Below, piece by piece: positions 2,729-39,920 of a stretch of DNA of 40,673 nt (position 1 is the stretch's first letter; each line of letters starts with the position of its first letter). The notes under the pieces are model-generated. The model saw only the letters and a program-made list of their open reading frames with translations. It made no database searches and was not told the DNA's origin. This DNA is from Escherichia phage KM02, in sequence record PQ179042, one strand, 5' to 3'. The position numbers and the translations under genes were made by a program.

Positions 2729-2751
2729 ACTTAACTATCACTATAGGACTC
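2729..2751 (+). promoter_or_regulatory. Phage-RNAP promoter directly upstream of the RNAP gene
   Basis: cttaactatcactatagg at 2730-2747 matches the consensus of the ten other phage promoters in this genome. Confidence 0.6.
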
Positions 2752-2820
2752 AAGGTCTAAGACTCCAAGTGAAAGACCAAAGAGACTTTAAGTGAAAGAC
2801 TAATAACAAGGACTTTAAGT

Positions 2821-5502
2821 ATGAGCGTCATCTCTATTGAAAAACACGACTTCTCTGATGTGTCGAACGCCATTGAGCCGTTTAACCTGCTGGCTGACCA
2901 CTACGGGCAAGACCTTGCAGTCAAACAGCTTCAGCTTGAGCACGAGGCATACACTGAAGGCGAGCGACGTTTCATCAAGAACCTTGAGCGCCAGACTGAG
3001 CGCGGGGAACTGGCAGACAATCAGGTCGCCAAGCCTTTGATGCAGACTCTGGTCCCTAATATTGCGCAAGCCGTCAGGGAGTGGCATGAAGGGCCAGACG
3101 GGAAGCTGTCAACCTCTCGTCCTAGCGTAGCGTTCACCGTGTTGAGCACTGAAGAGAAGGCCGTCAAGGACCGCTCTATGCGCATCTCCTGTGAGTCTGC
3201 TGCGGTTATCATACTGAAGGTCATACTCTCCAAGCTGGTCAAGCCTGAAGGGATACCGATTACACCGATGGCCTCAGCGATAGGTCGCACACTTGAGGAC
3301 GAAATCCGCTTCGGTCGCATCCGTGACAAGGAGAAAGAGCACTTCAAGAAGGCGATAGCTGATAACCTGAATAAGCGGGCCGGGGCGTCCTACAAGAAAG
3401 CCTACATGCAAGCGGTCGAGGCATCCATGCTGGAGCAAGGCCAACTGGAAGATGCGTGGGGGACTTGGAGTCCGACCGAGGCTGTCCACGTTGGAATCAA
3501 GATGCTGGAGATTGTCATCCAGTCCACACAACTGGTCGAGCTTAAGCGTTACGGTGCTGGCAATGCAGCGGCTGACGTTGAGATGGTCCACCTGTCAGAC
3601 TTCTGGGTCAAGAAGATGGCACAACGAGGATTCAGCCTTGCGGGTATAGCTCCAGTCTACCAGCCTTGCGTCGTTCCACCTAAGCCGTGGACTGGTGTCG
3701 TAGGTGGTGGGTACTGGGCCAAAGGACGCAGACCATTACCACTGATTCGCTTAGGGTCTAAGTCTGCGGTAGCACGCTACGAAGACGTGTATATGCCTGA
3801 AGTCTATGACGCTGTGAACATCATTCAGAATACACCTTGGAAAGTGAACAAGAAGGTTCTGGAAGTGGTGAACATGGTCGAGAAGCTGAACAACACGCCT
3901 ATTGATGACATACCTCAGATGGAACCGCTGAAGCCTGAGGACTATGCGGGTGAGACTGAAGATGAACTCAAGGCATGGAAGAAGGCTGCTGCTGGTATCT
4001 ACCGCCGAGAGAAGGCACGGCAGTCACGCAGATTGTCACTGAGCTTTATCGTTAACCAAGCGAACAAGTTCTCTCAGTTCAAGGTCATATGGTTTCCGTA
4101 CAACATGGACTGGCGCGGTCGCGTCTACGCTGTGCCGATGTTCAACCCTCAAGGCAACGACATGCAGAAAGGTCTCCTTACTCTGGCAGTCGGCAAGCCT
4201 ATTGGCGCTGATGGTTTCAAGTGGCTGAAGGTCCATGGTGCAAACTGTGCGGGTGTCGATAAAGTCACCTTCGAGGAGCGCATCAAGTGGGTGGAAGACA
4301 ACCACGACAACATCATGGCTGCTGCTAAAGCACCGATGGACAGCATTGAGTGGTGGGGCAAGTTAGACTCTCCGTTCTGTTTCCTCGCGTTCTGCTTCGA
4401 GTATGCTGGCGTAATGCACCACGGCCTGTCTTACTCCTGCTCGCTGCCGATAGCGTTCGATGGGTCCTGCTCTGGTATTCAGCACTTCAGTGCGATGCTT
4501 CGTGACCACATCGGTGGACATGCAGTAAACCTGACGCCATCCGGTAAGGTACAAGACATCTACCGCATTGTGTCTGACCGCATTGAGGAGGAGCTTAAAG
4601 TCCTGCTGATTAACGGTACTGACAACGAGATGGGCACTCACGAGGATAAGAAAACTGGTGAGATTACCGAACGTATCAAGCTGGGGACACGAGAGCTGGC
4701 CCGTCAGTGGCTGACATACGGTATGTCACGCAAGGTCACTAAGCGTTCAGTCATGACTCTGGCCTACGGGTCGAAAGAGTATGGCTTCGCAGACCAAGTT
4801 TACGAGGACATCGTGATGCCAGCGATTGACTCAGGGTCTGGCGCTATGTTCACCGAGCCAAGCCAAGCGGCTCGCTTCATGGCTAATATGATTTGGGAAG
4901 CTGTGAGTGTGACCGTAGTTGCTGCGGTAGACGCTATGAAGTGGCTTCAGGGTGCCGCCAAGCTGCTGGCTGCTGAAGTGAAGGACAAGAAGACTGGAGA
5001 AATCCTGAAGCCTTGCCTTCCGGTACACTGGGTAACACCTGATGGTTTCCCGGTCTGGCAGGAATATCGCAAGAAGGATACCACTCGTCTGAACTTGATG
5101 TTCTTAGGGTCATTCAACCTTCAGCCTACCGTCAACAGGGGTACGAAGAAAGAGCTGGACAAGCACAAGCAGGAGTCAGGCATTAGCCCGAACTTCGTCC
5201 ACTCACAAGATGGTAGCCACCTACGCAAGACTGTAGTCCATACTCACCGCAAGTATGGCGTGATGTCGTTCGCAGTGATTCACGATAGCTTCGGGACCAT
5301 CCCGGCTGACGCTGAGTATCTGTTCCGTGGGGTCCGTGAGACTATGGTCGAGACCTACCTAGACAACGATGTGCTGCTTGACTTCTACGAGCAGTTTGAA
5401 TACCAGCTTCACGAGAGCCAGCGCGATAAGTTGCCAGAGCTTCCGAAGAAAGGTAAACTGAATATCGAAGACATCTTGTCTTCAGACTTTGCATTCGCTT
5501 AA
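2821..5502 (+). CDS. 1: DNA-directed RNA polymerase, single-subunit T7-type
   Basis: 893 aa; extensive identity to recalled T7 RNAP motifs (FSDV...PFN.LADHYG, WFPYNMDWRGRVYAV, HGANCAGVDK, ending DFAFA). Confidence 0.98.
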   Translation: MSVISIEKHDFSDVSNAIEPFNLLADHYGQDLAVKQLQLEHEAYTEGERRFIKNLERQTERGELADNQVAKPLMQTLVPNIAQAVREWHEGPDGKLSTSRPSVAFTVLSTEEKAVKDRSMRISCESAAVIILKVILSKLVKPEGIPITPMASAIGRTLEDEIRFGRIRDKEKEHFKKAIADNLNKRAGASYKKAYMQAVEASMLEQGQLEDAWGTWSPTEAVHVGIKMLEIVIQSTQLVELKRYGAGNAAADVEMVHLSDFWVKKMAQRGFSLAGIAPVYQPCVVPPKPWTGVVGGGYWAKGRRPLPLIRLGSKSAVARYEDVYMPEVYDAVNIIQNTPWKVNKKVLEVVNMVEKLNNTPIDDIPQMEPLKPEDYAGETEDELKAWKKAAAGIYRREKARQSRRLSLSFIVNQANKFSQFKVIWFPYNMDWRGRVYAVPMFNPQGNDMQKGLLTLAVGKPIGADGFKWLKVHGANCAGVDKVTFEERIKWVEDNHDNIMAAAKAPMDSIEWWGKLDSPFCFLAFCFEYAGVMHHGLSYSCSLPIAFDGSCSGIQHFSAMLRDHIGGHAVNLTPSGKVQDIYRIVSDRIEEELKVLLINGTDNEMGTHEDKKTGEITERIKLGTRELARQWLTYGMSRKVTKRSVMTLAYGSKEYGFADQVYEDIVMPAIDSGSGAMFTEPSQAARFMANMIWEAVSVTVVAAVDAMKWLQGAAKLLAAEVKDKKTGEILKPCLPVHWVTPDGFPVWQEYRKKDTTRLNLMFLGSFNLQPTVNRGTKKELDKHKQESGISPNFVHSQDGSHLRKTVVHTHRKYGVMSFAVIHDSFGTIPADAEYLFRGVRETMVETYLDNDVLLDFYEQFEYQLHESQRDKLPELPKKGKLNIEDILSSDFAFA

Positions 5503-5520
5503 CAGGAGAGAGAGAGAGCT

Positions 5521-5811: not shown

Positions 5812-5834
5812 CCTAAACTATCACTATAGGATTA
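5812..5834 (+). promoter_or_regulatory. Phage-RNAP promoter (T7 phi1.1 analogue)
   Basis: ctaaactatcactatagg at 5813-5830. Confidence 0.75.
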
Positions 5835-5874: not shown

Positions 5875-5907
5875 ACCCTAAATAAACACTACTGGAGATT
5901 TAACCGT

Positions 5908-6087
5908 ATGTATCAGAATACTATCAACTTCGAGCGCATCCGTGAACGTCAGCAGACTGAAGGCTACATACCGAAGGGCCGCAAGCTGAACAAGACTAAA
6001 CGTGGCGGTGGTGTCAAAGGCGCTTTCCGTAATGCTGAAGGTAAAGACTCTATGATCAACCAAGAGAAGTACTTCGTAGGAGCGTAA
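5908..6087 (+). CDS. 1.1: gp1.1-like small basic protein
   Basis: 59-aa ORF with KGRKLNKTKR motif matching T7 gp1.1 as recalled; SD ggag. Confidence 0.55.
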   Translation: MYQNTINFERIRERQQTEGYIPKGRKLNKTKRGGGVKGAFRNAEGKDSMINQEKYFVGA

Positions 6088-7666: not shown

Positions 7667-7700
7667 AACCCAGTGGTCTTATGACTGCTGGGTTTCTTTG
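7667..7700 (+). terminator. Rho-independent terminator (T7 TE analogue)
   Basis: Stem aacccag (7667-7673) / ctgggtt (7688-7694) followed by tctttg. Confidence 0.55.
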
Positions 7701-7739: not shown

Positions 7740-7762
7740 CCTAAGCTATCACTATAGGACAA
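7740..7762 (+). promoter_or_regulatory. Phage-RNAP promoter (phi1.5-like)
   Basis: ctaagctatcactatagg at 7741-7758; one mismatch to consensus. Confidence 0.65.
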
Positions 7763-8554: not shown

Positions 8555-8709
8555 CTGATGTTGAGAAGAAATACATCGTGGAGCTTGAGGGTTGCGTTCA
8601 GTCCTTCGAGGTTCCGGTGTACGCAAAGTCTCTTGAAGAGGCTACCCTGAAGTCCCAAGAGTATGAGGACGCTGGTTTTGTGGTCGGACGAATCCGTCCT
8701 GAGACCTAA
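8551..8709 (+). CDS. 2: Gp2-like inhibitor of host RNA polymerase
   Basis: 52 aa; SFEVPVYA...[10 protein letters not shown] matches T7 Gp2 SFEVPIYA...AGFEVTRVRP as recalled; SD aaggag. Confidence 0.7.
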
Positions 8710-8727
8710 ACTATCACTGTAGGACAG
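8705..8727 (+). promoter_or_regulatory. Phage-RNAP promoter (phi2.5-like; variant CACTGTAGG)
   Basis: ctaaactatcactgtagg at 8706-8723. Confidence 0.6.
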
Positions 8728-8766: not shown

Positions 8767-9465
8767 ATGGCTAAAGAGCAACTGAAGACTTTCACCACTC
8801 CTGTAGCTGGTATCGTTGAGCCTTACGCATGGCTTAACAAAGCAGACACCAAGTTTAACGAGCGTGGTGAGCATAAGGTTAACCTGACTTTCAGTCTGGA
8901 TGACCCGAAGGTCCGTAAGATGATTGATGTATTACAGAAGATTCACGACGATGCGTATGCGAAAGCACTCGCAGACCACGAGAAGAACCCACCTCAGGTT
9001 CAGCGTGGCAAGAAGCCTATAGAGCCGCGTGAAGGCGACATGCCGTGGATTGCGAATGGTGACGGTACTGTTACCATGAAGTTTAAATGCTTTGCGTCTT
9101 ACCTGAAAGACGGCAAGTCAGAGCCTATCGTATTACGGTTCTACGACACCGATGCTAAACTCATCCGTGACGTCCCGAATATTGGCGCTGGGTCTAAGCT
9201 GAAGGTAAAGTTTAAAGTCCTGCCGTTCAAGTGGAACGCTGCGACTGGTGCAAGCGTTAAGCTCCAGCTTGAGTCCTGCCTTCTGGTAGAACTGAAGGAA
9301 TGGAAAGGTGATGGTACTGGTGGCGATGGTGGTTGGGGTGATGATGAAGACCTCGGTACTGGCTACAAAGCGTCAACAGATGGTGACTTCGGGTCTGATG
9401 ACTTCGGTGACGATGGTTCCGAAGGTGGTGACGACTCCAGCTCTGGTGGCGATTACGATTTTTGA
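8767..9465 (+). CDS. 2.5: Single-stranded DNA-binding protein
   Basis: 232 aa, identical length to T7 gp2.5; acidic C-terminal tail ending DYDF; internal GKKPIEPREGDMPW. Confidence 0.92.
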   Translation: MAKEQLKTFTTPVAGIVEPYAWLNKADTKFNERGEHKVNLTFSLDDPKVRKMIDVLQKIHDDAYAKALADHEKNPPQVQRGKKPIEPREGDMPWIANGDGTVTMKFKCFASYLKDGKSEPIVLRFYDTDAKLIRDVPNIGAGSKLKVKFKVLPFKWNAATGASVKLQLESCLLVELKEWKGDGTGGDGGWGDDEDLGTGYKASTDGDFGSDDFGDDGSEGGDDSSSGGDYDF

Positions 9466-9896
9466 AGAGACTAAACCGTGAGTCACTGCGGAGTAAGATA
9501 CTAGAAAATGTGACCAGAGAGAATTACTGCTGGATTTGGCAGAAGTCTTTCGGGTCACATGGATATGGTAATATAGGGACTGGGGGACAACGAAATGAGA
9601 CAGTACATAGGGTTTCATACGAAGTGTTCAATGGGACCATACCTGAAAAAATGCTGGTATTACATTCGTGTGACAACCGTAAGTGTTGCAACCCTGAGCA
9701 TTTACGGGTCGGAACATACAAGGAGAACCTCACGGATAGAGACACTAGGTCAAAGCGTGTGGTTGTTATGACTATGGATAAGGCTAGGGAGGCGAGAGCC
9801 TCTGGTCTTTCATGTACTGAACTAGCCACCAAATATGGCCTGTCTTATTCCTCAATGTTTAAGCTATTAAGAGGTGAGACATGGCGAGAAGTATGA
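9462..9896 (+). CDS. HNH homing endonuclease with C-terminal helix-turn-helix
   Basis: Motif YGNIGTGG...VHRVSYEVFNGTIPEKMLVLHSCDNRKCCNPEHL; sits between genes 2.5 and 3; TTG start with no clear SD. Confidence 0.75.
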   Translation: MKRLNRESLRSKILENVTRENYCWIWQKSFGSHGYGNIGTGGQRNETVHRVSYEVFNGTIPEKMLVLHSCDNRKCCNPEHLRVGTYKENLTDRDTRSKRVVVMTMDKAREARASGLSCTELATKYGLSYSSMFKLLRGETWREV

Positions 9897-11026: not shown

Positions 11027-11242
11027 ATGATTAAACTTATTGAATTTCTTGGTCGTCTGGTGGTGCGTGGTTATCGTCGTGCTGCGGTACTGGAACGAAA
11101 GGTAGCAGAGAAGACTGCTGACGGTGCTGCTGATGCTGCTGCTCTGGCTGACAAGCTGACCATAGCGTCACTGGAAGCTGGAATGAAGGCTCGTCAGGCT
11201 GATACCAAAGCTGACCAGTTGTCTCAGTTCTTCAAAGACTAA
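11027..11242 (+). CDS. Hypothetical protein
   Basis: 71-aa ORF with SD aaaggag; its stop sits inside the next promoter. Confidence 0.5.
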   Translation: MIKLIEFLGRLVVRGYRRAAVLERKVAEKTADGAADAAALADKLTIASLEAGMKARQADTKADQLSQFFKD

Positions 11243-11260
11243 ACTATCACCTTAGGGATG
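11238..11260 (+). promoter_or_regulatory. Phage-RNAP promoter, diverged at -4/-3 (CACCTTAGGG)
   Basis: ctaaactatcaccttaggg at 11239-11257. Confidence 0.5.
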
Positions 11261-17885: not shown

Positions 17886-17908
17886 ACTAAACTATCACTA
17901 TAGGGACT
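17886..17908 (+). promoter_or_regulatory. Phage-RNAP promoter (phi6.5 analogue)
   Basis: ctaaactatcactataggga at 17887-17906. Confidence 0.75.
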
Positions 17909-17969
17909 TTAGGACCTAAGATATGACTATAAGATAGACTTTAGTCTTAACTTAAAGAGGAGATTCAAG

Positions 17970-18908: not shown

Positions 18909-19149
18909 ATCAATCAGTAAGGCATTCAAGAAAGTGGTGAAAAGTACGCTAGGGACCGTTGGTCTTGGCTCTGATGACGCACCTAAGGTTGTTGAGGCTC
19001 AGACCCCAGCAGCACCAGTGGAAGTACCGAACGACCAAGTTGAAGATGTGGATACCGAAGCGACTGCATCTGACGAGAAGAAAGTGAAGAGTTCAGGTAA
19101 GCGTAGCCTTCAGGTCTCTCGTACCTCTGGTGGCGGTATTTCTATATGA
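18901..19149 (+). CDS. 7.3: gp7.3-like virion/tail protein
   Basis: MGK...KK N-terminus and C-terminal SGKRSLQVSRTSGGGISI match T7 gp7.3 (KKSLSVARSSGGGINI); GTG start. Confidence 0.7.
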   Translation: MGKSISKAFKKVVKSTLGTVGLGSDDAPKVVEAQTPAAPVEVPNDQVEDVDTEATASDEKKVKSSGKRSLQVSRTSGGGISI

Positions 19150-19538
19150 CACCATGTCATGAATGGGGTGGATACTGCACCAAGGATGGCTACGGTGAAA
19201 CTAGGGTAGATGGGCGCAAGGTTCGCGTTCATCGCCTAGAGTGGACGAAACACTACGGACCTATTCCGCATGACAAAGTGGTTCGCCACAAGTGTGACAA
19301 CCCTAAGTGTTTTAATATTGAACACCTAGAGTTAGGAACAACACAGGATAACACGGCTGACAGAGTGTCTCGTGGTCGAAGCGCCAAAGGAGAGGATAAC
19401 GGTAACGCCGTCCTCACTATTGATATTGTTAATGAGGTTCGCGAAAGTAGCATGTCTCAGCGCAAAATAGCGAAGACCTATGGAGTGTCACAGTCTACCG
19501 TATCTAAAATCAAACGCAATGTAACGTGGAGGTCATAA
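19146..19538 (+). CDS. HNH homing endonuclease with C-terminal helix-turn-helix (T7 gene 7.7 position)
   Basis: KDGYGETRVDGRKVRVHRLEW...GPIPHDKVVRHKCDNPKCFNIEHL plus HTH IAKTYGVSQSTVSKIKR; 130 aa. Confidence 0.8.
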   Translation: MTPCHEWGGYCTKDGYGETRVDGRKVRVHRLEWTKHYGPIPHDKVVRHKCDNPKCFNIEHLELGTTQDNTADRVSRGRSAKGEDNGNAVLTIDIVNEVRESSMSQRKIAKTYGVSQSTVSKIKRNVTWRS

Positions 19539-19539: not shown

Positions 19540-21108
19540 ATGGCAGAACGTGAAGGATTTGCGGCTGAAGGGGCGAAGGCAGTTTATGATAGGCTAAAGA
19601 ACGGACGACAGCCTTACGAGACCCGCGCACAGAACTGCGCTGCCGTGACCATCCCCTCGCTATTTCCCAAGGAGTCCGACAACTCCTCTACGGAATACGT
19701 GACGCCGTGGCAAGCTGTAGGTGCTCGCTGTTTAAACAACTTGGCTGCAAAGCTGATGTTGGCATTATTCCCTCAGTCACCGTGGATGCGACTGACAGTC
19801 TCAGAATATGAGGCCAAGACCTTGAGTCAGGACTCAGAGGCTGCTGCTCGTGTTGACGAAGGGCTGGCTATGGTCGAGCGTGTGTTGATGGCATACATGG
19901 AGACTAACAGTTTCCGTGTCCCATTGTTCGAAGCTCTGAAGCAGCTTATCGTCTCAGGTAACTGTCTGCTCTACATTCCAGAGCCTGAACAGGGTACTTA
20001 CAGTCCTATGCGAATGTACCGCTTAGTGTCATACGTTGTTCAACGTGATGCTTTCGGTAACATCTTGCAGATTGTGACTCTCGACAAGGTAGCGTTTAGT
20101 GCTCTACCGGAAGACGTAAAGTCTCAACTCAACGCAGACGACTATGAGCCTGACACCGAGCTTGAAGTGTATACGCACATCTACCGTCAGGACGACGAGT
20201 ATCTGCGCTACGAGGAAGTGGAAGGCATTGAGGTTACAGGGACCGATGGTTCCTACCCGCTGACTGCATGTCCATACATCCCGGTACGAATGGTTCGACT
20301 GGATGGTGAAGACTACGGTCGTTCTTACTGCGAGGAGTATCTGGGAGACCTGAACTCGCTGGAGACGATTACAGAAGCTATCACTAAAATGGCTAAGGTA
20401 GCCTCCAAGGTGATTGGCCTCGTTAACCCGAACGGTATCACGCAACCTCGACGTCTGAACAAGGCTGCTACAGGTGAGTTCGTGGCTGGTCGCGTTGAGG
20501 ACATCAACTTCCTGCAACTGACGAAAGGTCAGGACTTTACGATTGCCAAGTCGGTGGCTGATGCTATCGAGCAACGTTTAGGCTGGGCCTTCCTTCTTAA
20601 TAGTGCTGTTCAGCGTAATGCCGAGCGAGTCACTGCTGAAGAGATTCGTTATGTTGCTGGCGAACTGGAGGCGACCTTAGGTGGCGTTTACTCAGTACAG
20701 TCACAAGAGCTTCAGTTACCTATCGTCCGTGTTCTGATGAACCAGCTTCAGTCTGCTGGAATGATTCCTGACCTTCCGAAAGAAGCGGTAGAGCCTACTG
20801 TCTCCACTGGTCTGGAAGCGTTAGGTCGTGGTCAGGACTTGGAGAAGCTAACTCAGGCGGTTAACATGATGACTGGTCTTCAGCCGCTATCTCAGGACCC
20901 GGACATCAACTTGCCGACCCTTAAGCTACGACTCCTGAACGCTCTGGGTATCGACACCGCTGGTCTACTCCTGACGCAAGACGAGAAGATTCAGCGCATG
21001 GCTGAGCAGTCGTCTCAACAGGCAGTTGTCCAAGGTGCGTCTGCTGCTGGTGCTAACATGGGTGCTGCTGTAGGTCAGGGAGCTGGTGAGGACATTGCTC
21101 AAGCCTAA
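19540..21108 (+). CDS. 8: Portal (head-tail connector) protein
   Basis: Near-identity to T7 gp8 over long stretches (YETRAQNCA, TIPSLFPK, TPWQAVGAR, YRLVSYVVQRDAFGN, YLRYEEVEG, RMVRLDGEDYGRSY). Confidence 0.97.
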   Translation: MAEREGFAAEGAKAVYDRLKNGRQPYETRAQNCAAVTIPSLFPKESDNSSTEYVTPWQAVGARCLNNLAAKLMLALFPQSPWMRLTVSEYEAKTLSQDSEAAARVDEGLAMVERVLMAYMETNSFRVPLFEALKQLIVSGNCLLYIPEPEQGTYSPMRMYRLVSYVVQRDAFGNILQIVTLDKVAFSALPEDVKSQLNADDYEPDTELEVYTHIYRQDDEYLRYEEVEGIEVTGTDGSYPLTACPYIPVRMVRLDGEDYGRSYCEEYLGDLNSLETITEAITKMAKVASKVIGLVNPNGITQPRRLNKAATGEFVAGRVEDINFLQLTKGQDFTIAKSVADAIEQRLGWAFLLNSAVQRNAERVTAEEIRYVAGELEATLGGVYSVQSQELQLPIVRVLMNQLQSAGMIPDLPKEAVEPTVSTGLEALGRGQDLEKLTQAVNMMTGLQPLSQDPDINLPTLKLRLLNALGIDTAGLLLTQDEKIQRMAEQSSQQAVVQGASAAGANMGAAVGQGAGEDIAQA

Positions 21109-21126
21109 ACTATCACTATAGGAACT
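21104..21126 (+). promoter_or_regulatory. Phage-RNAP promoter (phi9 analogue)
   Basis: ctaaactatcactatagg at 21105-21122, overlapping the gene 8 stop. Confidence 0.7.
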
Positions 21127-22090: not shown

Positions 22091-22113
22091 ACTAAACTAT
22101 CACTATAGGGAGA
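22091..22113 (+). promoter_or_regulatory. Phage-RNAP promoter (phi10 analogue; full CACTATAGGGAGA)
   Basis: ctaaactatcactatagggaga at 22092-22113. Confidence 0.8.
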
Positions 22114-23390: not shown

Positions 23391-23393
23391 TTG

Positions 23394-23434
23394 AAACCCC
23401 TTGGGTGCCTTCGGGTGCCTGAGGGGTTTTTTTG
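23394..23434 (+). terminator. Tphi-like terminator for phage RNAP
   Basis: About 16-bp stem with a ttcg tetraloop (23410-23413) followed by T7; resembles T7 Tphi. Confidence 0.75.
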
Positions 23435-24355: not shown

Positions 24356-24796
24356 ATGATACACGACAAGTGCGGTCTGGAGTTTAGGGAGGGAGCAAAA
24401 GGCTCATGCTTGAACTGTAGACGTATAGCCAAGCTGGTAAAGAAAGGACTATCAGTGGAGGAAGCTAGATTAGTTGAGCCGAGAGGAAAGAAGGTCATTA
24501 AAGATAAAGACTGGAAGAAGAACAGTCAGCTTAAATATCTTTATGGCATCAACCTAGAGAGGTTTAATAAAATGCGAAAGGAGGCAAACTATCAGTGCCA
24601 AATCTGTGGGTGTCATGAGAGCGAGAGTACAGGAGGGACATTATGTGTTGACCACAACCACGAAACTGGTGAGGTTAGAGGTCTTCTCTGTAGGCACTGC
24701 AATAAGTCTCTAGGAGGTTTCAAGGACTCCCGTGAGATTCTACTAAACGCTGCTAAGTATCTGGAGGACACATGCCGCTTATCACACAAAGCATAA
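24356..24796 (+). CDS. Endonuclease VII-like nuclease
   Basis: CQICGCHES...CVDHNHETGEVRGLLCRHCNKSLG matches the T4 endonuclease VII family core; SD ggaggtga. Confidence 0.75.
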   Translation: MIHDKCGLEFREGAKGSCLNCRRIAKLVKKGLSVEEARLVEPRGKKVIKDKDWKKNSQLKYLYGINLERFNKMRKEANYQCQICGCHESESTGGTLCVDHNHETGEVRGLLCRHCNKSLGGFKDSREILLNAAKYLEDTCRLSHKA

Positions 24797-27129
24797 AAAA
24801 TCTTAAAGGTGGCATTAGCCAGCAGCCTGATATACTGAGGTTCTCGGACCAAGGCGAGAAACAGGTAAACTGCTGGTCATCAGAGAGTGATGGCCTACAG
24901 AAGCGTCCACCTACAGTATTCAAGCGACGTCTTAACATCGACGTTGGGAGCAACCCTAAGTTCCACCTGATTAACCGTGATGAGCAGGAGCAGTATTACA
25001 TCGTGTTCAACGGGTCCAACATTCAGGTAGTCGACTTGAGCGGTAATCAATACTCAGTTTCAGGTGCGGTAGACTACGTTAAGTCGTCCAACCCGCGAGA
25101 TAACATCCGTGTCGTTACAGTTGCAGACTATACGTTCATCGTGAACCGTAAGGTTGTCGTTAACGGTGGAAGCGAGAAGTCACACTCTGGTTATAATCGT
25201 AAAGCTCGTGCTTTAATTAACCTGCGTGGTGGACAGTATGGTCGCACCCTTAAGGTAGGAATCAACGGAGGCGTTAAGGTTTCGCATAAGCTGCCAGCAG
25301 GTAATGATGCCGAGAATGACCCACCTAAGGTGGATGCTCAGGCCATCGGTGCAGCTCTGAGAGACCTTCTTGTTGCTGCTTACCCTACCTTCACGTTCGA
25401 CCTTGGGTCTGGCTTCCTGTTAATCACTGCCCCTTCAGGGACTGACATTAACTCAGTGGAGACGGAGGATGGCTACGCTAACCAGCTAATCAGCCCAGTC
25501 CTAGACACGGTGCAAACAATCTCTAAGTTGCCTCTTGCGGCTCCAAATGGGTACATCATTAAGATTCAAGGTGAGACCAACAGTAGCGCCGATGAATATT
25601 ACGTGATGTATGACTCCAATACTAAGACGTGGAAGGAGACAGTAGAGCCGGGAGTTGTCACTGGGTTCGATAACACCACAATGCCACATGCTCTGGTGAG
25701 ACAATCTGACGGCTCCTTTGAGTTTAAGACTCTGGACTGGTCTAAGCGGGGTGCTGGCAATGATGACACAAACCCTATGCCTAGCTTCGTGGATGCTACG
25801 ATTAACGATGTGTTCTTCTACAGGAACAGGCTAGGGTTCTTGTCCGGAGAGAACGTAATCATGAGCCGTTCAGCCAGCTACTTTGCGTTCTTCCCTAAGA
25901 GTGTGGCGACATTGAGTGATGATGATCCTATTGACGTAGCTGTAAGTCACCCTAGAATCTCAATACTTAAGTATGCCGTTCCGTTTAGCGAGCAGCTACT
26001 ACTTTGGTCAGATGAGGTGCAGTTCGTGATGACAAGCTCAGGGGTCCTTACCTCGAAGTCTATCCAGCTTGATGTGGGCTCAGAGTTTGCCTTAGGTGAT
26101 AACGCCAGACCGTTCGCTGTAGGACGCTCAGTCTTCTTCTCAGCGCCTCGTGGGTCATTCACCAGTATTAAGCGATACTTCGCTGTAGCAGATGTGTCTG
26201 ACGTGAAGGATGCCGATGATACCACTAGTCACGTACTGTCCTATATCCCTAACGGGGTGTTTGACATTCAAGGTACAGGGACTGAGAACTACATCTGCGT
26301 CAACTCTACAGGTGCATACAACCGAATCTACATCTACAAGTTCTTGTTTAAGGACGGCGTACAACTTCAAGCCTCTTGGTCGCACTGGGAGTTTCCTAAA
26401 GCTGATAAGATTCTGGCGTCTGCGTCGATTGGCTCTACCATGTTCATTGTTCGTCAGCACCAAGGGGGTGTGGACATTGAGCACCTTAAGTTCATCAAGG
26501 AGGCAACCGACTTTCCATTAGAGCCGTATAGACTCCACGTTGACTCCAAGGTGTCTATGGTAATACCAAATGGCTCATACAACGCTGACACCTATAAGAC
26601 TACGGTTGACATTGGTGCTGCTTATGGGGGCAACGCTCCGTCTCCCGGTCGGTACTATCTGATTGACAGTCAGGGTGCCTATGTGGACCTTGGTGAACTT
26701 ACCGACATCTCTACTGTGATTACCCTCAACGGCGATTGGTCGGGACGTACAGTGTTCATCGGACGGTCTTATCTGATGTCCTACAAGTTCTCACGGTTCC
26801 TGATTAAGATTGAAGACGATAGTGGCACTCAGTCTGAAGACACTGGTCGTCTACAGCTTCGTCGGGCTTGGGTCAACTACAAGGACACTGGCGCTCTGAG
26901 ACTCATTGTCAGAAACGGTGAGCGGGAGTTCGTGAATACCTTCAACGGGTACACCCTTGGTCAGCAAACCATCGGTACTACAAACATTGGTGACGGGCAG
27001 TATCGATTCGCTATGAATGGTAACGCATTAACCACGAGTCTAACCTTAGAGTCCGACTATCCTACCCCAGTGTCCATCGTTGGGTGTGGCTGGGAGGCAT
27101 CATACGCTAAGAAAGCTCGTTCAGTCTAA
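24772..27129 (+). CDS. 12: Tail tubular protein B
   Basis: SQSIKNLKGGISQQPDILR, LQKRPP, HLINRDE, VTVADYTFIVNR, RAWVNY, GCGWE match T7 gp12. Confidence 0.95.
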   Translation: MPLITQSIKNLKGGISQQPDILRFSDQGEKQVNCWSSESDGLQKRPPTVFKRRLNIDVGSNPKFHLINRDEQEQYYIVFNGSNIQVVDLSGNQYSVSGAVDYVKSSNPRDNIRVVTVADYTFIVNRKVVVNGGSEKSHSGYNRKARALINLRGGQYGRTLKVGINGGVKVSHKLPAGNDAENDPPKVDAQAIGAALRDLLVAAYPTFTFDLGSGFLLITAPSGTDINSVETEDGYANQLISPVLDTVQTISKLPLAAPNGYIIKIQGETNSSADEYYVMYDSNTKTWKETVEPGVVTGFDNTTMPHALVRQSDGSFEFKTLDWSKRGAGNDDTNPMPSFVDATINDVFFYRNRLGFLSGENVIMSRSASYFAFFPKSVATLSDDDPIDVAVSHPRISILKYAVPFSEQLLLWSDEVQFVMTSSGVLTSKSIQLDVGSEFALGDNARPFAVGRSVFFSAPRGSFTSIKRYFAVADVSDVKDADDTTSHVLSYIPNGVFDIQGTGTENYICVNSTGAYNRIYIYKFLFKDGVQLQASWSHWEFPKADKILASASIGSTMFIVRQHQGGVDIEHLKFIKEATDFPLEPYRLHVDSKVSMVIPNGSYNADTYKTTVDIGAAYGGNAPSPGRYYLIDSQGAYVDLGELTDISTVITLNGDWSGRTVFIGRSYLMSYKFSRFLIKIEDDSGTQSEDTGRLQLRRAWVNYKDTGALRLIVRNGEREFVNTFNGYTLGQQTIGTTNIGDGQYRFAMNGNALTTSLTLESDYPTPVSIVGCGWEASYAKKARSV

Positions 27130-27136
27130 CTTATTG

Positions 27137-27186
27137 AAGGGCCTATAGATTTACCTTAACTATCACTATAGGGACTATAGGCCCTT
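27137..27186 (+). repeat. Perfect 12-bp inverted repeat (aagggcctatag / ctataggccctt) bracketing the phi13 promoter
   Basis: Arms at 27137-27148 and 27175-27186 with a 26-nt spacer that contains the promoter core. Confidence 0.7.
27154..27176 (+). promoter_or_regulatory. Phage-RNAP promoter (phi13 analogue)
   Basis: cttaactatcactataggga at 27155-27174. Confidence 0.7.
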
Positions 27187-33700: not shown

Positions 33701-34624
33701 GAGCATAGCCTGACTGGTAGTAAGCGTAAGTTCGATGACCGCTGGCTTAAGACCGCTGGTATCTCTGACGAGCAGTGGAAGGGCATTAAGTCCCTCATCC
33801 GTGAGTCAGTGACGCGTGGTCCAGACGGGAAGTACACCATCAAGGATAAGAAGGCGTTCAGTCAGGACCCAAGGGCTATGGACCTCTGGCGTATGGGTGA
33901 TACCATCGCTGACGAAACGTTACTACGTCCTCATAAGCTGTCCAACATGGACGCAAAGGCTTATGGCCCTCTCGCTAAGACTGTCCTTCAGTTTAAGAAC
34001 TTCGTCATCAAGTCCATCAATGGACGTACCATGCGAACCTTCTATAACGCCACGAAGAACAACCGAGCGATGGACGCTGCCCTGTCCACTGTGATCTCTA
34101 TGGGTCTTGCCGGTATCTACTACATGGCTCAGGCTCATGTCAAGGCTTACGCTATGCAGGATGATCGAGGCCGTGACTACCTCAAGCAAGCTCTAGACCC
34201 GACGATGATTGGATATGCAGCTCTATCACGTAGTTCACACCTTGGTGGACCACTTGGGGTCGCCAACATTCTGGGTGGCATCGCTGGGTATGAGGACACT
34301 AAGTTACTCCGCTCGTCTATCCTACCTCGTTCGCCAACAGAGAAGCCTGAACGTGCTATCGCGTATGGTGCAGCTACAAGTGACCCTGTGATGAATGTGG
34401 TCGGCAACTTCCTTGAGCAGGTCCCGGCTTTCGGATATGCTGCTAACGTTGGTGCTTCGGCTTATAACTTGGCGGGATACCTCAAGGCTGATACCCGTGT
34501 CAACGAGCGAGACTACATGACCGGGATGTATAACACGTTCCGTGAACTTGTACCGAATGACCCGATTACCCAGAAGTTGCTGCTTGGAACGTTTGAGGAG
34601 CAAGGCATCCACATCAAGGACTAA
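30737..34624 (+). CDS. 16: Internal virion protein D with a non-T7 N-terminal domain
   Basis: From about residue 190 onward matches T7 gp16 (TGGSP.NL, AGVIGAGVDPLTYVP, RLEARETARN, DLVRSPTGMQSGASGK, LTGRARR, HKLSNMDAKAYGPLAK); the first 130 aa or so lack the T7 SLT motif. Confidence 0.93.
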   Translation: MATRGIRNNNIGNIRVSKDQWEGATGDDGSFVTFDSPESGVRALAKNLQSYGRQGYDSIEKIINRWAPPSENATQSYIDSVVAATGIPATQSIDLTNPDVLASLSEAIGYHETGSRYDPEVYQKGVERALNGISPKTPPVSANVFDALTEGLKAKPKVALGENLPTAAGLNIEGQAPEAPNESFGEMFYKSTGETMQEREDRSTWFGFGSATEAEVKNSMVGVAIRAGQTEDSLDVIGDVFNPTRWNNHKWTRDELDQIRNAGVLPQYYGVITGGSPQNLTELINLALENQKFDQEKAKAGTGAQLAAGVIGAGVDPLTYVPIAGQVGKGAKLVNKMFTVAAQSGALAGVSEMARTSVAGGDAHVAEAILGGALFGGGMTAIADGLGRALGRNTNEFAGPATRLEARETARNVDGQDLSRLPIQEGEQTFSHQGVKFSDVPNEPGSVRLEDGSILIGENPLNPKTRQVFDEVIEPERAAAGVNLGGLTEIGLKLLRSESPEIRGVAADLVRSPTGMQSGASGKIGTTASDVFERLRAVDHRFYNDIDDTVTEALKDPYFQTAFWRDSGAFRQDIYQRVSMAIEDGSGNLKAELTPGELKVYDLLKNQFDAKREMMENPAMFGRPDAQSIFPGSRFKGTYVPHVYSNQMKELYITELGSPEALQEAIKKSWLTSYASRPEVKKRVDEALLEADPTLTPEGLAAAVDKYANDKAYGISHTEQFERSSVMEDNINGLVGLENNSFLEARNLFDSDMSIVLPNGQTFSVNNLREWDMDKIVPAYNRRVNGDIAIMAGTGKTTKDMKDLVETMMNKAGDDGKLKGEVSTLRDTLKILTGRARRDGADDAAFATVMHTMTDLSFFAKNAYMGVQNLTEIGGMLARGNVRAMLHGVPIFRDLAFRNKKVGASEIKDLHNVIFGKELDDSIRPSKQDVIDRLRSYSDLGRGTATALGTAKYYTGELAVRSPFTKVLNGTTNYLLDAGRQGFLSDIVEHSLTGSKRKFDDRWLKTAGISDEQWKGIKSLIRESVTRGPDGKYTIKDKKAFSQDPRAMDLWRMGDTIADETLLRPHKLSNMDAKAYGPLAKTVLQFKNFVIKSINGRTMRTFYNATKNNRAMDAALSTVISMGLAGIYYMAQAHVKAYAMQDDRGRDYLKQALDPTMIGYAALSRSSHLGGPLGVANILGGIAGYEDTKLLRSSILPRSPTEKPERAIAYGAATSDPVMNVVGNFLEQVPAFGYAANVGASAYNLAGYLKADTRVNERDYMTGMYNTFRELVPNDPITQKLLLGTFEEQGIHIKD

Positions 34625-34642
34625 ACTATCACTATAGGAAAC
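34620..34642 (+). promoter_or_regulatory. Phage-RNAP promoter (phi17 analogue)
   Basis: ctaaactatcactatagg at 34621-34638, overlapping the gene 16 stop. Confidence 0.7.
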
Positions 34643-34689: not shown

Positions 34690-36903
34690 ATGTCCACGAT
34701 TACACAATTCCCTTCAGGAAGCACTCAGTACAGGATTGAGTTCGACTACCTAGCCAGAACGTTTGTTGTTGTTACGCTGGTGAATAGCTATAACCCTACC
34801 CTGAACCGTGTACTGGAAGTTGGTCGAGATTACCGATTCCTTAACCCAACGATGATTGATATGTTGGTTGACCAATCAGGTTTCGACATCGTTCGTATTC
34901 ACCGTCAGACTGGAACTGACTTAGTGGTAGACTTCAGGAACGGCTCAGTGTTGACAGCTAGTGACCTGACCAATTCAGAGCTTCAGGCTATCCATATTGC
35001 AGAAGAAGGTCGAGACCAAACGGTTGACTTAGCGAAGGAATATGCCGATGCTGCTGGTAGCTCTGCTGGCAACGCTAAGGATAGCGAGGATGAAGCACGC
35101 AGAATCGCTGAGAGTCTCAAGGCATCTGGTCAAATTAGCTATATTACCCGTCGCTCCTTCGAGAAAGGCTTCAACGTTATAACATGGAACGAGGTACTGC
35201 TATGGGAAGAGGATGGTGAGTATTACCGCTGGGATGGTACGCTTCCAAAGAACGTTCCTGCTGGTTCAACTCCTGAAACTTCCGGTGGGATTGGATTAGG
35301 TGCGTGGGTTAGTGTAGGTGATGCTACATTAAGATCTGACTTATCATCTGTGGATGGAATCAGTGTTGTTGGAGCAGCAAACTACGCAAATATCCGCGCA
35401 TATACAGGCCCAGCTAACCACATTAACTGTTATGGTAGAAGCTCTATTTTTGACAATGCTTCTGGGTATTTCTTCGCGGATTCATCCGATACGACAACCC
35501 AAGACAATGACGGAACTGTGCTTGTCGATGCGTCCGGTCGTCGCTGGAAGCGCAGCTATACAGGGCCTGTCGACGCCCGCTGGTTCGGAGTTACGGCAAA
35601 CGGGAGCACGGATGACACCGTTGCAGCTAACAAAGCGCTGGCAACACTTCAACATGTGGTCTTCCCGGTAGGCATAATAATAATCAGTGCACCTCTTATC
35701 TTTGGTACTCAGACCATCGAAGGCGCTGGAACTTATCCAAATGGCTCCTACGGTACTATCATCCAGTGTACAGGCGACCATGCCGCGTTTGAGCATGCTC
35801 CTACTAGGTATCAGCCGGGAGGTATTATTCGTAACTTTTGGATTAATTATCAAGCAGGGAAACCAACTATAACCACTGGAAATGCCAAAGGTGTTAACTT
35901 CGGTACGTCCAACACGTCTATTGATCCGCTGGTTAATGGCGCGACCAAATTTATAGTAGAAAACGTCATTGTCCGTGGTGCTTATTGGGGCTTCTATGAT
36001 GTAACGTCTACATATTTAATGGAGTACAGGAACTGCTGGGCATGGGACTGCTATGTTGGGTTTAAAAAGCATTACGGAACTACCATAAAATATAGCTCTT
36101 GTTACGCACTGGACTGCTACGGCTCGTGGGATATGCAAGATAGTCACTGCGCCACCTTTGAGAACTGCGCCTACGACGGCACAAGCATCATCGGTAACAT
36201 TAAGCCTATTTACTTCAAAGGATGCCCAGGCGTCACAATTAACGGGATGCAGCATGAATCAAGTAAAATTGACGTTTCAGGACGTGGTGACTTTGTTATC
36301 GAAAACTGCGTTGGGTTTGTGCTTAATGGCATGTCAATTCCTTCCTGGCTTAATACGTTAACTACCGGAGAAGCATATCTATTTGAGATTATAAACTCCA
36401 CGGCAGACATAAAGGGAGTAGCCCTCTCTGCGGATGCCGCCAATGTGAAAAGCTCGGGTGCGAATACGTATTTATTTAACGCCAAGAGCGGAAGTATCGT
36501 CAATGTTTCGGCGAGCGGGCTACCGGCTGTGGCTGGGTCATCTTTCAATTACAGCATGTCGGCAGACAGTACCAGCAGAATCGACAGAACTCCAAGTGCG
36601 GTAATTGGTGGATTGACCGCTGGTGCGGTGTTTCGTAACGGCGTGTCCGCGCCTGTGTATGTGGATTACAATTCTGTTACGATTGCCGTTGGTGCTGTTG
36701 CATTGATTGGTACCGTAACCCTGCCCGGAGTTAAATATCAGGACTTCCTGATGGCTGACTCGTCAACAGGGGTGAATGGTTGCACTATAGATGTTGTTAG
36801 GCCAGCGGGAGCAGTTGGGAGTGTTAACGTTTATATCCGTAACAACAACGCATCCCCTGTCACCCTTACAGGCCAAATCGCAATAAGATATCTTAGACCA
36901 TAG
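34690..36903 (+). CDS. 17: Tail fibre/tail spike: T7 gp17-like N-terminal anchor plus beta-helix (pectate-lyase-like) C-terminal domain
   Basis: N-terminus FDYLARTFVVVTL..DYRF...LVDFRNGSVLTASDL matches T7 gp17; the remainder is G/N/T/S/V-rich with ARWFGVTANGSTDDT, typical of depolymerase tailspikes; 737 aa versus 553 aa. Confidence 0.88.
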   Translation: MSTITQFPSGSTQYRIEFDYLARTFVVVTLVNSYNPTLNRVLEVGRDYRFLNPTMIDMLVDQSGFDIVRIHRQTGTDLVVDFRNGSVLTASDLTNSELQAIHIAEEGRDQTVDLAKEYADAAGSSAGNAKDSEDEARRIAESLKASGQISYITRRSFEKGFNVITWNEVLLWEEDGEYYRWDGTLPKNVPAGSTPETSGGIGLGAWVSVGDATLRSDLSSVDGISVVGAANYANIRAYTGPANHINCYGRSSIFDNASGYFFADSSDTTTQDNDGTVLVDASGRRWKRSYTGPVDARWFGVTANGSTDDTVAANKALATLQHVVFPVGIIIISAPLIFGTQTIEGAGTYPNGSYGTIIQCTGDHAAFEHAPTRYQPGGIIRNFWINYQAGKPTITTGNAKGVNFGTSNTSIDPLVNGATKFIVENVIVRGAYWGFYDVTSTYLMEYRNCWAWDCYVGFKKHYGTTIKYSSCYALDCYGSWDMQDSHCATFENCAYDGTSIIGNIKPIYFKGCPGVTINGMQHESSKIDVSGRGDFVIENCVGFVLNGMSIPSWLNTLTTGEAYLFEIINSTADIKGVALSADAANVKSSGANTYLFNAKSGSIVNVSASGLPAVAGSSFNYSMSADSTSRIDRTPSAVIGGLTAGAVFRNGVSAPVYVDYNSVTIAVGAVALIGTVTLPGVKYQDFLMADSSTGVNGCTIDVVRPAGAVGSVNVYIRNNNASPVTLTGQIAIRYLRP

Positions 36904-37210: not shown

Positions 37211-37470
37211 CGCAGATGGACTTAGAGAAGTTCCTCTTGATGCTAGATACTGAACGTGCTAGACTCATGCTGCAAGACCTGCGGGATGACTCTAAGCGTT
37301 CTCCTCAGCTCTACAACGCCATTGAGAAGCTTCTGGCTCGTCACAACTTTGTGTTAAGCAAGGTGTCTGTTGACGAGAAGACGCTCGCTGATATGGAGGC
37401 CCTGAACGCAGAGTATGATAAGGTGCTCTCAGCGAACGAGGATAATGACACCGGGTATGGTGTCCAGTAA
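37207..37470 (+). CDS. 18: Terminase small subunit
   Basis: LMLDTERARLMLQDL...RSPQLYNAIEKLLARH matches T7 gp18. Confidence 0.88.
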   Translation: MTQMDLEKFLLMLDTERARLMLQDLRDDSKRSPQLYNAIEKLLARHNFVLSKVSVDEKTLADMEALNAEYDKVLSANEDNDTGYGVQ

Positions 37471-37473
37471 GTG

Positions 37474-37512
37474 TTAGACTCAAGGTCATCTATTGGTGGC
37501 CTTCATGATTAG
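37474..37512 (+). promoter_or_regulatory. Conserved RNase III-site-like motif (copy C; T7 R18.5 position)
   Basis: tagactcaaggtcat-N6-gtggccttcatgatta between genes 18 and 18.5. Confidence 0.5.
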
Positions 37513-37562
37513 CACTAACGTAGGTGACTATACGTGAATTCTTTTAAAACAGGAGGGCAACT

Positions 37563-38000
37563 ATGCTCAAACTTTTACGACAGGCCGTCCCTTGGCTGGT
37601 GGCAGGACTCCTGTTCTGTTCAGGCTACTGGGTGGCAGACAATAAGTGGGAGGCGAAAGTAAACGATGAGTACATCACGAAACTTGAGGCACGAGAAAAT
37701 CAACGGGCTGCTGTCCAAGGTGAAATCGACAAAGTGTCAAAAGACTGGCAAGACAAGATGTCCGCGCTGGAAGGCTCTACTGATAGGATTATTGCTGACC
37801 TTAACCACGATAACAAGCGGCTGCGCGTCCGAGTCAACACCTCAGGTCTCACCGAGTCAGATGTCAGTCGATGCTTCCCTAATGGTAGAGTCGAACTACA
37901 CCCAGAAACTTCTAAAAGTCTTATCCGAATAACTCAGGAGGCGGACCTTAAGGAGAAGGCGCTTCAGGACACAATAAGGAGGCTCCAAGGTGTTAAGTGA
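37563..38000 (+). CDS. 18.5: Rz-like i-spanin
   Basis: N-terminal TM segment; ALEGSTDRIIADLNHDNKRLRVRV matches T7 gp18.5. Confidence 0.88.
   Translation: MLKLLRQAVPWLVAGLLFCSGYWVADNKWEAKVNDEYITKLEARENQRAAVQGEIDKVSKDWQDKMSALEGSTDRIIADLNHDNKRLRVRVNTSGLTESDVSRCFPNGRVELHPETSKSLIRITQEADLKEKALQDTIRRLQGVK
37666..37932 (+). CDS. 18.7: Rz1-like o-spanin lipoprotein, embedded in the +1 frame of gene 18.5
   Basis: PRWKALLIGLLLTLTTITSGCASES (lipobox) and SVDASLMVESN match T7 gp18.7. Confidence 0.82.
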   Translation: MSTSRNLRHEKINGLLSKVKSTKCQKTGKTRCPRWKALLIGLLLTLTTITSGCASESTPQVSPSQMSVDASLMVESNYTQKLLKVLSE

Positions 38001-38035
38001 TTACTACAAAGTGGACCTAATGCTGGAGGGACTCT

Positions 38036-39802
38036 ATGTCTAAGAAAACACCTGTTGAAAGACAGGAAGAAATGACCAAAAGGATGAGGGACGACTTCGT
38101 GTTCTTCATCTTCGTTCTCTGGAAAGCTCTTAGCCTTCCGGTTCCAACCCGCTGCCAGATAGATATGTGTAAGAAGCTGGCTGCTGGGGATAATCGCCGC
38201 TTCATCCTTCAGGCGTTCCGTGGTATTGGCAAGTCGTTTCTGACCTGTGGTTTCGTGGTCTGGAAACTATGGAACAACCCAGACTTGAAGTTCATGATTG
38301 TGTCTGCCTCAAAGGAACGAGCCGATGCGAACTCCATCTTCATCAAGCGAATCATCGACCTCATGCCTCAGCTTCAGGAACTCAAACCTAAGCAGGGACA
38401 GCGAGATGCGGTTATCAGCTTTGACGTTGGGCCAGCCAAGCCAGATCACTCACCTTCGGTTAAGTCCGTTGGTATCACTGGTCAGTTGACTGGTAGTCGT
38501 GCTGACATCCTGATTGCCGATGACGTGGAGGTTCCTAACAACTCAGCGACTCAGGCTGCACGAGACCGTCTGTCAGAGCTTGTGAAAGAGTTCGACGCTA
38601 TCCTGAAGCCGGGAGGTACAATCATCTATCTGGGTACTCCTCAGAACGAGATGACCTTGTATCGTGAGCTGGAAGGCCGTGGGTACACCACTACTATCTG
38701 GCCCGCTCGTTATCCACGAGACCGGAAGGACTGGCAGTCTTACGGCGACCGTCTGGCTCCTATGCTTCAGGCAGAGCTTGAAGAGGACCCTGAGTCATTC
38801 TACTGGCGTCCGACTGATGAAGTACGCTTCGATGATACGGACCTTAAGGAACGTGAGCTGTCATATGGTAAGGCTGGCTTCGCTCTACAGTTCATGCTTA
38901 ACCCGAACCTGAGTGATGCCGAGAAGTACCCACTGAAGCTCCGTGACCTTATCGTAGCGGATTTGGACCCAGCGTCCAGCCCAATGGTCTACCAATGGTT
39001 ACCGAACCCTCAGAACAAGCGTGAGGACGTTCCTAACGTTGGACTCATGGGTGACTCATACCACACGTATCAGACTGTAGGTTCTGCCTTCAGTTCGTAC
39101 ACCCAGAAGATTCTGGTCATTGACCCTAGTGGTCGTGGTAAGGATGAAACTGGCTATGCGGTACTGTATCAGCTCAACGGCTACATCTTCGCTATGGAAG
39201 TTGGTGGTATGCGTGGTGGTTATGAAGACTCTACGCTGGAAGCCTTAGCTAAGATTGGTCGTAAGTGGAAGGTCAACGAATACGTCATTGAGGGTAACTT
39301 CGGTGATGGTATGTACCTTGAGCTATTCAAGCCTGTAGCGGCCCGTATCCATCCTGCTGCTGTAACTGAAGTGAAGAGTAAGGGTCAGAAAGAACTCCGC
39401 ATCTGTGACGTTCTGGAGCCTATCATGGGGTCTCACCGGCTTATCGTTAATGCTGCTGCTATCGTCCAAGACTACCAGTCAGCCTCCGATAAGGATGGTG
39501 TGCGTAACCCTATCTACTCCCTCTTCTACCAGATGACCCGTATCTCCCGTGAACGTGGAGCCTTGGCACACGATGACAGACTTGATGCGCTGGCTATCGG
39601 TGTACAGTTCTTCGTTGAGTCTATGGCGAAGGATGCCAACAAAGGCGAACGTGAAGTCACTGAGGAGTGGCTGGAAGAACAGATGGAGAACCCACGGAAA
39701 GGCTTCGAGTCCATCCACACTGAGTTCTGGGACAATGGGGTCCGGGTAACTCACGATACGGACGACGAGCTTGGACTAGGGTCCTACGTTACGTTCCACT
39801 AG
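38036..39802 (+). CDS. 19: Terminase large subunit
   Basis: 588 aa; [25 protein letters not shown] and the nuclease-domain region match T7 gp19. Confidence 0.97.
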
Positions 39803-39897
39803 CTGAATGAATAACTATAGGCGAAAACTGAATTAATACTCAGTTAGTAACCTATAGTTACTACCAGTCTAACCTACTGTTTTATAAGGAGTTTGGA

Positions 39898-39920
39898 CTT
39901 AACTATCACTATAGGGAAGA
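39898..39920 (+). promoter_or_regulatory. Phage-RNAP promoter near the right end (phiOR analogue)
   Basis: cttaactatcactatagggaaga at 39898-39920. Confidence 0.7.

Follow-up and report, generated by a model that had tools for sequence, protein, structure and literature searches.

The window analysed here, a stretch of 40,673 nucleotides (nt) from Escherichia phage KM02 (sequence record PQ179042), is a complete linear genome bounded by 176-bp direct terminal repeats at 2-177 and 40498-40673. Its gene order is T7-like. The first 25 kb show approximately 93% DNA identity over 82-87% to many Escherichia phages of the genus Kayfunavirus, and the region of the RNA polymerase (RNAP) gene is 94-97% identical to Kayfunavirus phages, including K1F; judging from these values, the phage is probably a distinct Kayfunavirus species. 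The subject of this analysis is a set of 11 copies of a promoter-like motif dispersed along this genome, together with the single-subunit RNAP encoded by its gene 1.

The initial annotation had proposed 11 promoters with a common consensus. A search of both strands for the 19-mer TAAACTATCACTATAGGGA, allowing for at most three mismatches, recovered exactly these 11 sites and no others, all of them on the + strand (2731, 5814, 7742, 8707, 11240, 17888, 21106, 22093, 27156, 34622, and 39899), whereas 0.01 matches are expected from dinucleotide-preserving shuffles. A position weight matrix (PWM) scan, which had been named as a suitable check, gave the same set. The log-odds PWM was built from the 11 sites themselves and applied to both strands, and the distribution of scores is bimodal: the 11 sites score between 30.5 and 36.5 bits (25.6-35.9 in the leave-one-out procedure), the runner-up in the window reaches 14.2 bits, and the maximum over 20 shuffled genomes is 11.4 bits. 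Additional or weaker promoters with scores between 14.2 and 30.5 bits were not found on either strand. Since this gap is clean, the list of 11 promoters can be considered complete. There is also no site to the left of 2729, and hence no equivalent of phiOL near the left end.

Alignment of the 11 sites at the predicted start G yields the consensus MCTWAACTATCACTATAGGRA from -17 to +4. Positions -16, -15, -13, -11 to -5, and -2 to +2 are invariant. Position -17 is M, and the invariant upstream bases are C at -16 and T at -15, so that the conservation reaches beyond the region described initially. The block at -12 to -8 is ACTAT in 10 sites and GCTAT in the remaining one (the 7742 site), and it is followed by CACTATAGG. 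Position +3 is occupied by G in five sites and by A in six, and the T7-like start GGGAGA is present in the gene 10 promoter only. A gene start lies within 246 nt downstream of every site, and the locations are equivalent to those in T7. Overall, the sites have the features of promoters of the T7 supergroup, with about 23 bp conserved from -17 to +6, co-orientation with the genes, a TATA melting segment, and a G start.

Gene contexts were assigned by homology to phage EcoDS1 (GenBank EU734172, a 2008 record). There, 11 phage promoters are annotated at corresponding places under the labels gene 1, gene 1.1, phi1.6, phi2.5, gene 4, phi6.5, phi9, gene 10, phi13, phi17, and phiOR; one of these is directly upstream of gene 1, and the last follows gene 19. 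Eight of the 11 are identical to their counterparts in the window from -17 to +6, and the differences are single bases, located at -17 in two sites and at +6 in phi9.

The leftmost promoter, ACTTAACTATCACTATAGGACTC (2729-2751 from -17 to +6, predicted +1 at 2746, 34.4 bits), lies 75 nt before the ATG of the RNAP gene 1 and has the same sequence as the annotated EcoDS1 promoter 2244-2266 and the K1F site. The gene 1.1 promoter CCTAAACTATCACTATAGGATTA (5812-5834, +1 at 5829, 34.1 bits) differs from the EcoDS1 promoter 6034-6056 at -17, and it also matches a "predicted promoter" annotated in Ro45lw, a phage of another Kayfunavirus species. The next three sites are those that had been singled out as weaker variants, at 7741, 8706, and 11239, and located at class II-like positions; both the variants and their positions stood up, as they precede genes 1.6, 2.5, and 4 and correspond to annotated promoters in EcoDS1. 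The phi1.6 equivalent CCTAAGCTATCACTATAGGACAA (7740-7762, +1 at 7757, 32.5 bits), with G at -12, is identical to EcoDS1 phi1.6 and lies just past the early terminator TE. The phi2.5 equivalent CCTAAACTATCACTGTAGGACAG (8705-8727, +1 at 8722, 32.6 bits), with G at -3 and the variant core CACTGTAGG at 8715 (the 8707 site), is identical to EcoDS1 phi2.5 and lies 45 nt before the start of the gene 2.5 SSB. The promoter of gene 4, encoding primase/helicase, ACTAAACTATCACCTTAGGGATG (11238-11260, +1 at 11255), with C at -4, T at -3, and the variant core CACCTTAGG at 11248 (the 11240 site), is the weakest of the 11 (30.5 bits) and differs from the EcoDS1 promoter 11107-11129 at -17.

The remaining sites score at least 35.0 bits. 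The class III-type phi6.5 equivalent ACTAAACTATCACTATAGGGACT (17886-17908, +1 at 17903, 36.3 bits) corresponds to EcoDS1 phi6.5, which is annotated with a shift of 2 nt, and the counterpart of EcoDS1 phi9, CCTAAACTATCACTATAGGAACT (21104-21126, +1 at 21121, 36.5 bits), overlaps the end of gene 8. The promoter of gene 10, encoding the major capsid protein, ACTAAACTATCACTATAGGGAGA (22091-22113, +1 at 22108, 36.3 bits), has the full consensus and is identical to the EcoDS1 promoter 20819-20841. Identity to the annotated EcoDS1 promoters of the same name was also observed for the equivalents of phi13, CCTTAACTATCACTATAGGGACT (27154-27176, +1 at 27171, 35.0 bits), phi17, ACTAAACTATCACTATAGGAAAC (34620-34642, +1 at 34637, 36.5 bits), which overlaps the end of gene 16, and phiOR, ACTTAACTATCACTATAGGGAAG (39897-39919, +1 at 39914, 35.1 bits).

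Several minor features surround these sites. The initially transcribed sequence of phi13 repeats the promoter core (CACTATAGGGACTATAGGC at 27164-27181), with ACTATAGG occurring twice, 9 nt apart. The 14.2-bit site mentioned above is a degenerate promoter-like 21-mer, CCTAAGATATGACTATAAGAT, at 17915-17935, which starts 12 nt downstream of the phi6.5 start, at +13, and has the same sequence in K1F and EcoDS1; it may have arisen by duplication of a promoter and subsequent decay. It was also considered as a part of a T7-style RNase III hairpin and rejected, the fold of 17903-17969 being no better than those of shuffled sequences (z = 0.01). Finally, the 30-nt segments (-47 to -18) preceding the gene 1 promoter (2699-2728) and phiOR (39867-39896) agree at 18 of 30 bases (CTAACC..CTG...), with a similar segment at 27124-27153; T at -14 is likewise a feature of these promoters only. 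The agreement is marginal: in the null distribution for the best of 55 pairs, the 95th percentile is 16 and the 99.9th is 19.

The same set of sites is found in related phages. All 11 sites recur in phage K1F, with order and gene context unchanged, and 10 of them are identical over 19 nt; the departures are a single base at +3 in phiOR and another at +6 in phi9. When the window PWM is applied to K1F or to EcoDS1, each genome yields exactly 11 sites scoring above 25 bits. At the genome level, K1F differs from the window in its tailspike, and several endonuclease open reading frames (ORFs) are inserted in the window. In Ro45lw there are matching sites, two of which are annotated as promoters; the site before its gene 1 carries A at -2, and the minimal promoter of this phage, ACTTAACTATCACTATAGGGA, equals the phiOR- and gene 1-type sites of the window. 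Many contigs of about 40 kb in a viral metagenome collection carry several copies of the 15-mer core, and a 2026 genome note on another Kayfunavirus lists repeats CTWAACTATCACTATAGG, containing the ACTAT block, as promoters (PMC13298934).

These comparisons bear on the nature of the repeats. Dispersed elements of another kind, such as homing-endonuclease targets, recombination sites, or replication or packaging signals, might be suspected in a genome that carries HNH and Endonuclease VII ORFs and has the last copy near the right end, where phiOR of T7 has a role in replication. In contrast, every copy is on the coding strand ahead of a gene cluster, the core CACTATAGG equals the melting and initiation region of the T7 promoter, and the same sequence drives in vitro transcription by a polymerase 94% identical to that of the window (PMC12272871). 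We regard a non-promoter origin of the repeats as extremely improbable.

The promoters were further compared with those of well-studied phages. On the window PWM, the consensus promoters of T7, T3, SP6, and K11 score -2.5, 13.0, -0.4, and 4.1 bits, respectively, in agreement with the proposed difference from these four. For T7, a second PWM was built from 17 annotated promoters. In the cross-scoring, which is a sequence-model proxy for specificity and not biochemistry, the window sites score from -23.1 to -0.9 bits on the T7 matrix, as compared to 26.5-37.2 bits for the T7 promoters themselves, and the T7 promoters score from -18.2 to -2.5 bits on the window matrix; in reciprocal genome scans, neither genome has a site above 12 bits on the matrix of the other. 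The window and T7 promoter sets are fully resolved from each other by this scoring.

At the level of single positions, the initial description needs some correction. The hexamers set against each other there do diverge, but they had been taken in different registers: ACTATC occupies -12 to -7, ACGACT of T7 occupies -13 to -8, and CCCTCA of T3 occupies -11 to -6. In one register, positions -12 to -8 are ACTAT here, CGACT in T7, and ACCCT in T3. The T7 promoter TAATACGACTCACTATAGGGAGA is identical to the window promoters from -8 to +2 and different at -17 to -14 and -12 to -9. Thus, the divergence reported for -12 to -8 holds for -12 to -9 and is accompanied by a second divergent segment upstream, while the T7-like part, initially given as -7 to +6, extends only from -8 to +2, as position +3 is mixed and GGGAGA is confined to gene 10. 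The T3 promoter AATTAACCCTCACTAAAGGGAGA, the best-scoring of the four references, shares A at -12 and C at -11 with the window promoters and differs in having CC instead of TA at -10/-9 and A at -2.

Single substitutions at -11 to -7 in the T7 promoter severely cut the activity of T7 RNAP. This matters for the possibility that the differences are functionally neutral, i.e., that T7-type polymerases and the window enzyme recognise each other's promoters and there is no separate specificity. The identity to T7 from -8 to +2 favours such cross-recognition; the four consecutive changes at -12 to -9, along with those at -17 to -14, speak against it.

In its general layout, the window resembles T7, which likewise has 23-bp promoters for a single-subunit RNAP, the same arrangement of TE, Tphi, and phiOR, and the same division into deviating weaker sites before genes of DNA metabolism and consensus sites before virion genes. 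The differences are in the number of promoters (17 in T7 and 11 here), in the absence of phiOL from the window, and in the phage promoter directly upstream of gene 1, which has no counterpart in the annotations of T7, T3, and K11.

Gene 1 (2821-5502, + strand) encodes a T7-like single-subunit RNAP of 893 amino acids (Pfam RNA_pol, 1.2e-105, and RPOL_N). It is 98.0% identical to gp1 of K1F, 94% to the Ro45lw enzyme, 63.7% to that of T3, 63.6% to that of T7, 59.3% to that of K11, and 32.4% to that of SP6. By alignment, the codons of the specificity loop, YRKKDTTRLNLMFLGSFNLQPTVNRGTKKELD, are at 5065-5160 on the + strand (residues 749-780, corresponding to 739-770 of T7, whose numbering is used below). 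The recognition hairpin (744-761) reads QTRLNLMFLGQFRLQPTI in T7 and TTRLNLMFLGSFNLQPTV in both the window and K1F. As compared with T7, the changes are Q744T, Q754S, R756N, and I761V, whereas R746, N748, and Q758 are retained. Among the 18 amino-acid differences between the window and K1F enzymes, none falls in the hairpin and one, R/K at position 763, falls in the 739-770 loop; in Ro45lw, the hairpin differs only at M750L. The T3 enzyme combines D748 with R756, and the window enzyme combines N748 with N756.

The retained and changed residues can be set against the promoter bases using the residue-to-base assignments from structure summarised in PMC11880802. The bases read in T7 by R746 (-7) and Q758 (-8) are the same here, and the base read by R756 (-9) is changed. 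Instead of the T7-type combination of CGACT at -12 to -8 with R756, N748, and Q758, the window thus has the ACTAT block with N756. The claim of an RNAP of separate specificity therefore held up in this respect: the hairpin is altered at 744, 754, 756, and 761, and the combination of 754S/756N/761V with ACTAT is a published pair (PMC11880802, PMC3458549).

A second region of the enzyme is also diverged. The equivalent of the AT-rich recognition loop of T7, residues 92-104 in the numbering of the window enzyme (PDGKLSTSRPSVA), is encoded at 3094-3132 (+ strand, by alignment). It has a two-residue insertion and fewer basic residues than the corresponding segments of T7, T3, K11, and SP6, and it lacks the basic K/R-G-K/R-K/R-P motif. 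This divergence coincides with the non-T7 bases at -17 to -14, including the invariant C-16 and T-15, and the two may be functionally linked.

Promoters and polymerases of this type have been studied experimentally. RNAP hairpin subfamilies with matching promoter blocks were defined by Temme et al. 2012 (PMC3458549). In that study, grafting of the K1F hairpin into T7 RNAP and replacement of positions -12 to -7 of the T7 promoter gave a 17-fold induction at the cognate promoter, and the chimera and promoter pairs were described as highly orthogonal, including to the T7 promoter (PMC3458549). A 2025 study lists the K1F graft as 754S/756N/761V with the cognate ACTAT, and the wild type with CGACT (PMC11880802, Table 2). 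The native K1F RNAP with its promoter is in use as an orthogonal expression system in Halomonas and E. coli (PMC12218169; PMC12164125), with an approximately 46,000-fold effect on target against 6- to 27-fold on non-cognate promoters (PMC12218169). Finally, purified Ro45lw RNAP transcribes in vitro from ACTTAACTATCACTATAGGGA, with the G as +1 (J Biol Chem 2025, PMC12272871).

Hence, the novelty implied by the initial annotation did not survive. The specificity is the known K1F/Kayfunavirus type, which had not been recognised there: promoters of this type are annotated in public records, characterised in vitro, and in use as a tool. An RNAP specificity distinct from that of every characterised phage polymerase could seem to follow from the difference from T7, T3, SP6, and K11, the sole four phages compared initially. 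It is refuted because each of the 11 sites has an identical or almost identical counterpart in K1F and among the annotated EcoDS1 promoters and the recognition hairpin is the same as that of K1F; moreover, the K1F promoter and RNAP pair was published in 2012 and has been used since then. We assign this explanation practically no weight.

We conclude, with a probability of about 0.95, that the 11 motifs serve a T7-type phage of the K1F-like group (genus Kayfunavirus) as its middle and late promoters. The sites, their statistics and positions, the loop sequence, and the identity to annotated promoters of relatives come directly from the sequences compared here, while the behaviour of this enzyme and these sites would be expected, by analogy, to follow that of close relatives. 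A few considerations weigh against the conclusion. N748 is the same as in T7 although -11 and -10 differ, so that a reading of one residue per base fails at these positions. The worst-case ratio of cognate to non-cognate activity in the loop-graft set is only 8-fold (PMC11880802), and T7 RNAP has been reported to cross-react with some test promoters, to an extent not quantified (PMC12272871). The transcription data come from relatives of this phage, and the relative promoter strengths would hold by analogy with T7.

The 8-fold ratio and the conservation of R746, N748, and Q758 would also agree with functionally neutral differences. On the other side, R756N removes the reader of -9 (structure cited in PMC11880802), and orthogonality has been measured both for the K1F loop (PMC3458549) and for the native enzyme (PMC12218169). 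Cross-recognition with T7 was rejected on the PWM evidence and the literature, and we consider it very unlikely, if marginally less so than a new specificity.

For the K1F-like middle and late promoters, the following scheme of transcription can be proposed. The host RNAP would start at sigma-70 promoters near the left end and transcribe the early region, including gene 1, up to TE. The gene 1 product would then bind the 23-bp promoters as duplex from -17 to -5, melt the TATA segment (-4 to -1), and begin RNA at the G at +1. Its specificity would reside mainly in the beta-hairpin loop inserted in the major groove at -12 to -7. With N in place of R756, the T7 reader of G:C at -9, and together with S754, T744, and V761, the loop would go with ACTAT rather than CGACT, while R746 and Q758 are retained along with their bases at -7 and -8. 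Sites deviating in the melting and initiation region or at -12 would serve the DNA-metabolism genes 1.6, 2.5, and 4, and the full-consensus sites would serve the virion genes 6.5, 9, 10, 13, and 17, similarly to class II and class III promoters of T7.

As a result, the transcription programme of a new Kayfunavirus isolate, with its two terminators and the 11 middle and late promoters, can be annotated with confidence, and the polymerase of this isolate can be assigned to the K1F specificity class, which is already used in synthetic biology as a T7-orthogonal system. Beyond correct annotation, the importance of this is small, and no new question about promoter recognition is raised.

A more speculative proposal combines two features of the K1F group, namely, a second co-diverged specificity module in the native polymerases and positive autoregulation of gene 1; as a whole, it is tentative and rather unlikely to hold. 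The module would be the equivalent of the AT-rich loop, which may read the invariant non-AT bases C-16 and T-15; if this is real, the native pair would be more orthogonal to T7 than are the hairpin grafts published so far. As to autoregulation, the promoter 75 nt before gene 1 would give the polymerase positive feedback; this site is conserved in K1F, in Ro45lw, and, as an annotated promoter, in EcoDS1. The diverged loop and the gene 1 promoter can each be seen both in the window and in related phages. No functional dissection of the AT-rich-loop divergence or of the gene 1 promoter was found in the accessible literature.

Other elements of the transcription programme are also at the expected places. 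The early, host RNAP terminator TE, a 12-pair hairpin followed by a T-run, is at 7667-7694 (+ strand), after the ligase gene, and its position matches that of the annotated TE in EcoDS1 (7668-7697) and of TE in T7. A Tphi-like terminator for the phage RNAP, a 17-pair GC-rich hairpin followed by a T-run, is at 23393-23430 (+ strand), after gene 10, in the same place as the annotated post-gene 10 terminator of EcoDS1 and Tphi of T7. A consensus scan identified a host sigma-70-type early promoter, TTGACA-18-TAGTAT (10 of 12 matches), at 551-580 on the + strand, and there is a second conserved sigma-70-type promoter at about 410-440; both align with annotated host RNAP promoters of EcoDS1. The promoter at 551-580 is predicted to drive the first expression of gene 1.

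The gene 17 tailspike (34690-36903) appears to be composed of two parts. The N-terminal 225 amino acids match the Kayfunavirus tail adaptor (89% identity to gp17 of EcoDS1; Pfam Phage_T7_tail and Tail_spike_N). For the C-terminal 512 amino acids (35365-36900), a comparison with 50,697 phage records gave no close relative (best tblastn identity, 32.6%, to Vectrevirus T145P2, Vec13), and only a weak pectate-lyase-like Pfam match was obtained. The tailspike is not the K1F endosialidase, and the target of the phage is probably a different capsule or O-antigen, possibly one that has yet to be described.

Three endonuclease ORFs, at 9462-9896, 19146-19538, and 24356-24796, have no counterpart at these places in K1F or EcoDS1. 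Two of them belong to HNH_3 (Pfam, 9.6e-14 and 3.4e-17) and occupy the positions of T7 genes 2.8 and 7.7, and the third is an Endonuclease VII (2.2e-20) located between genes 11 and 12. All three are probably mobile insertions of the homing type. Lastly, the record MT350292.1, "Enterococcus phage EFA-1", with Enterococcus faecalis given as the host, is approximately 92-95% identical to the window over the RNAP region and the first 25 kb, and its host label looks wrong.

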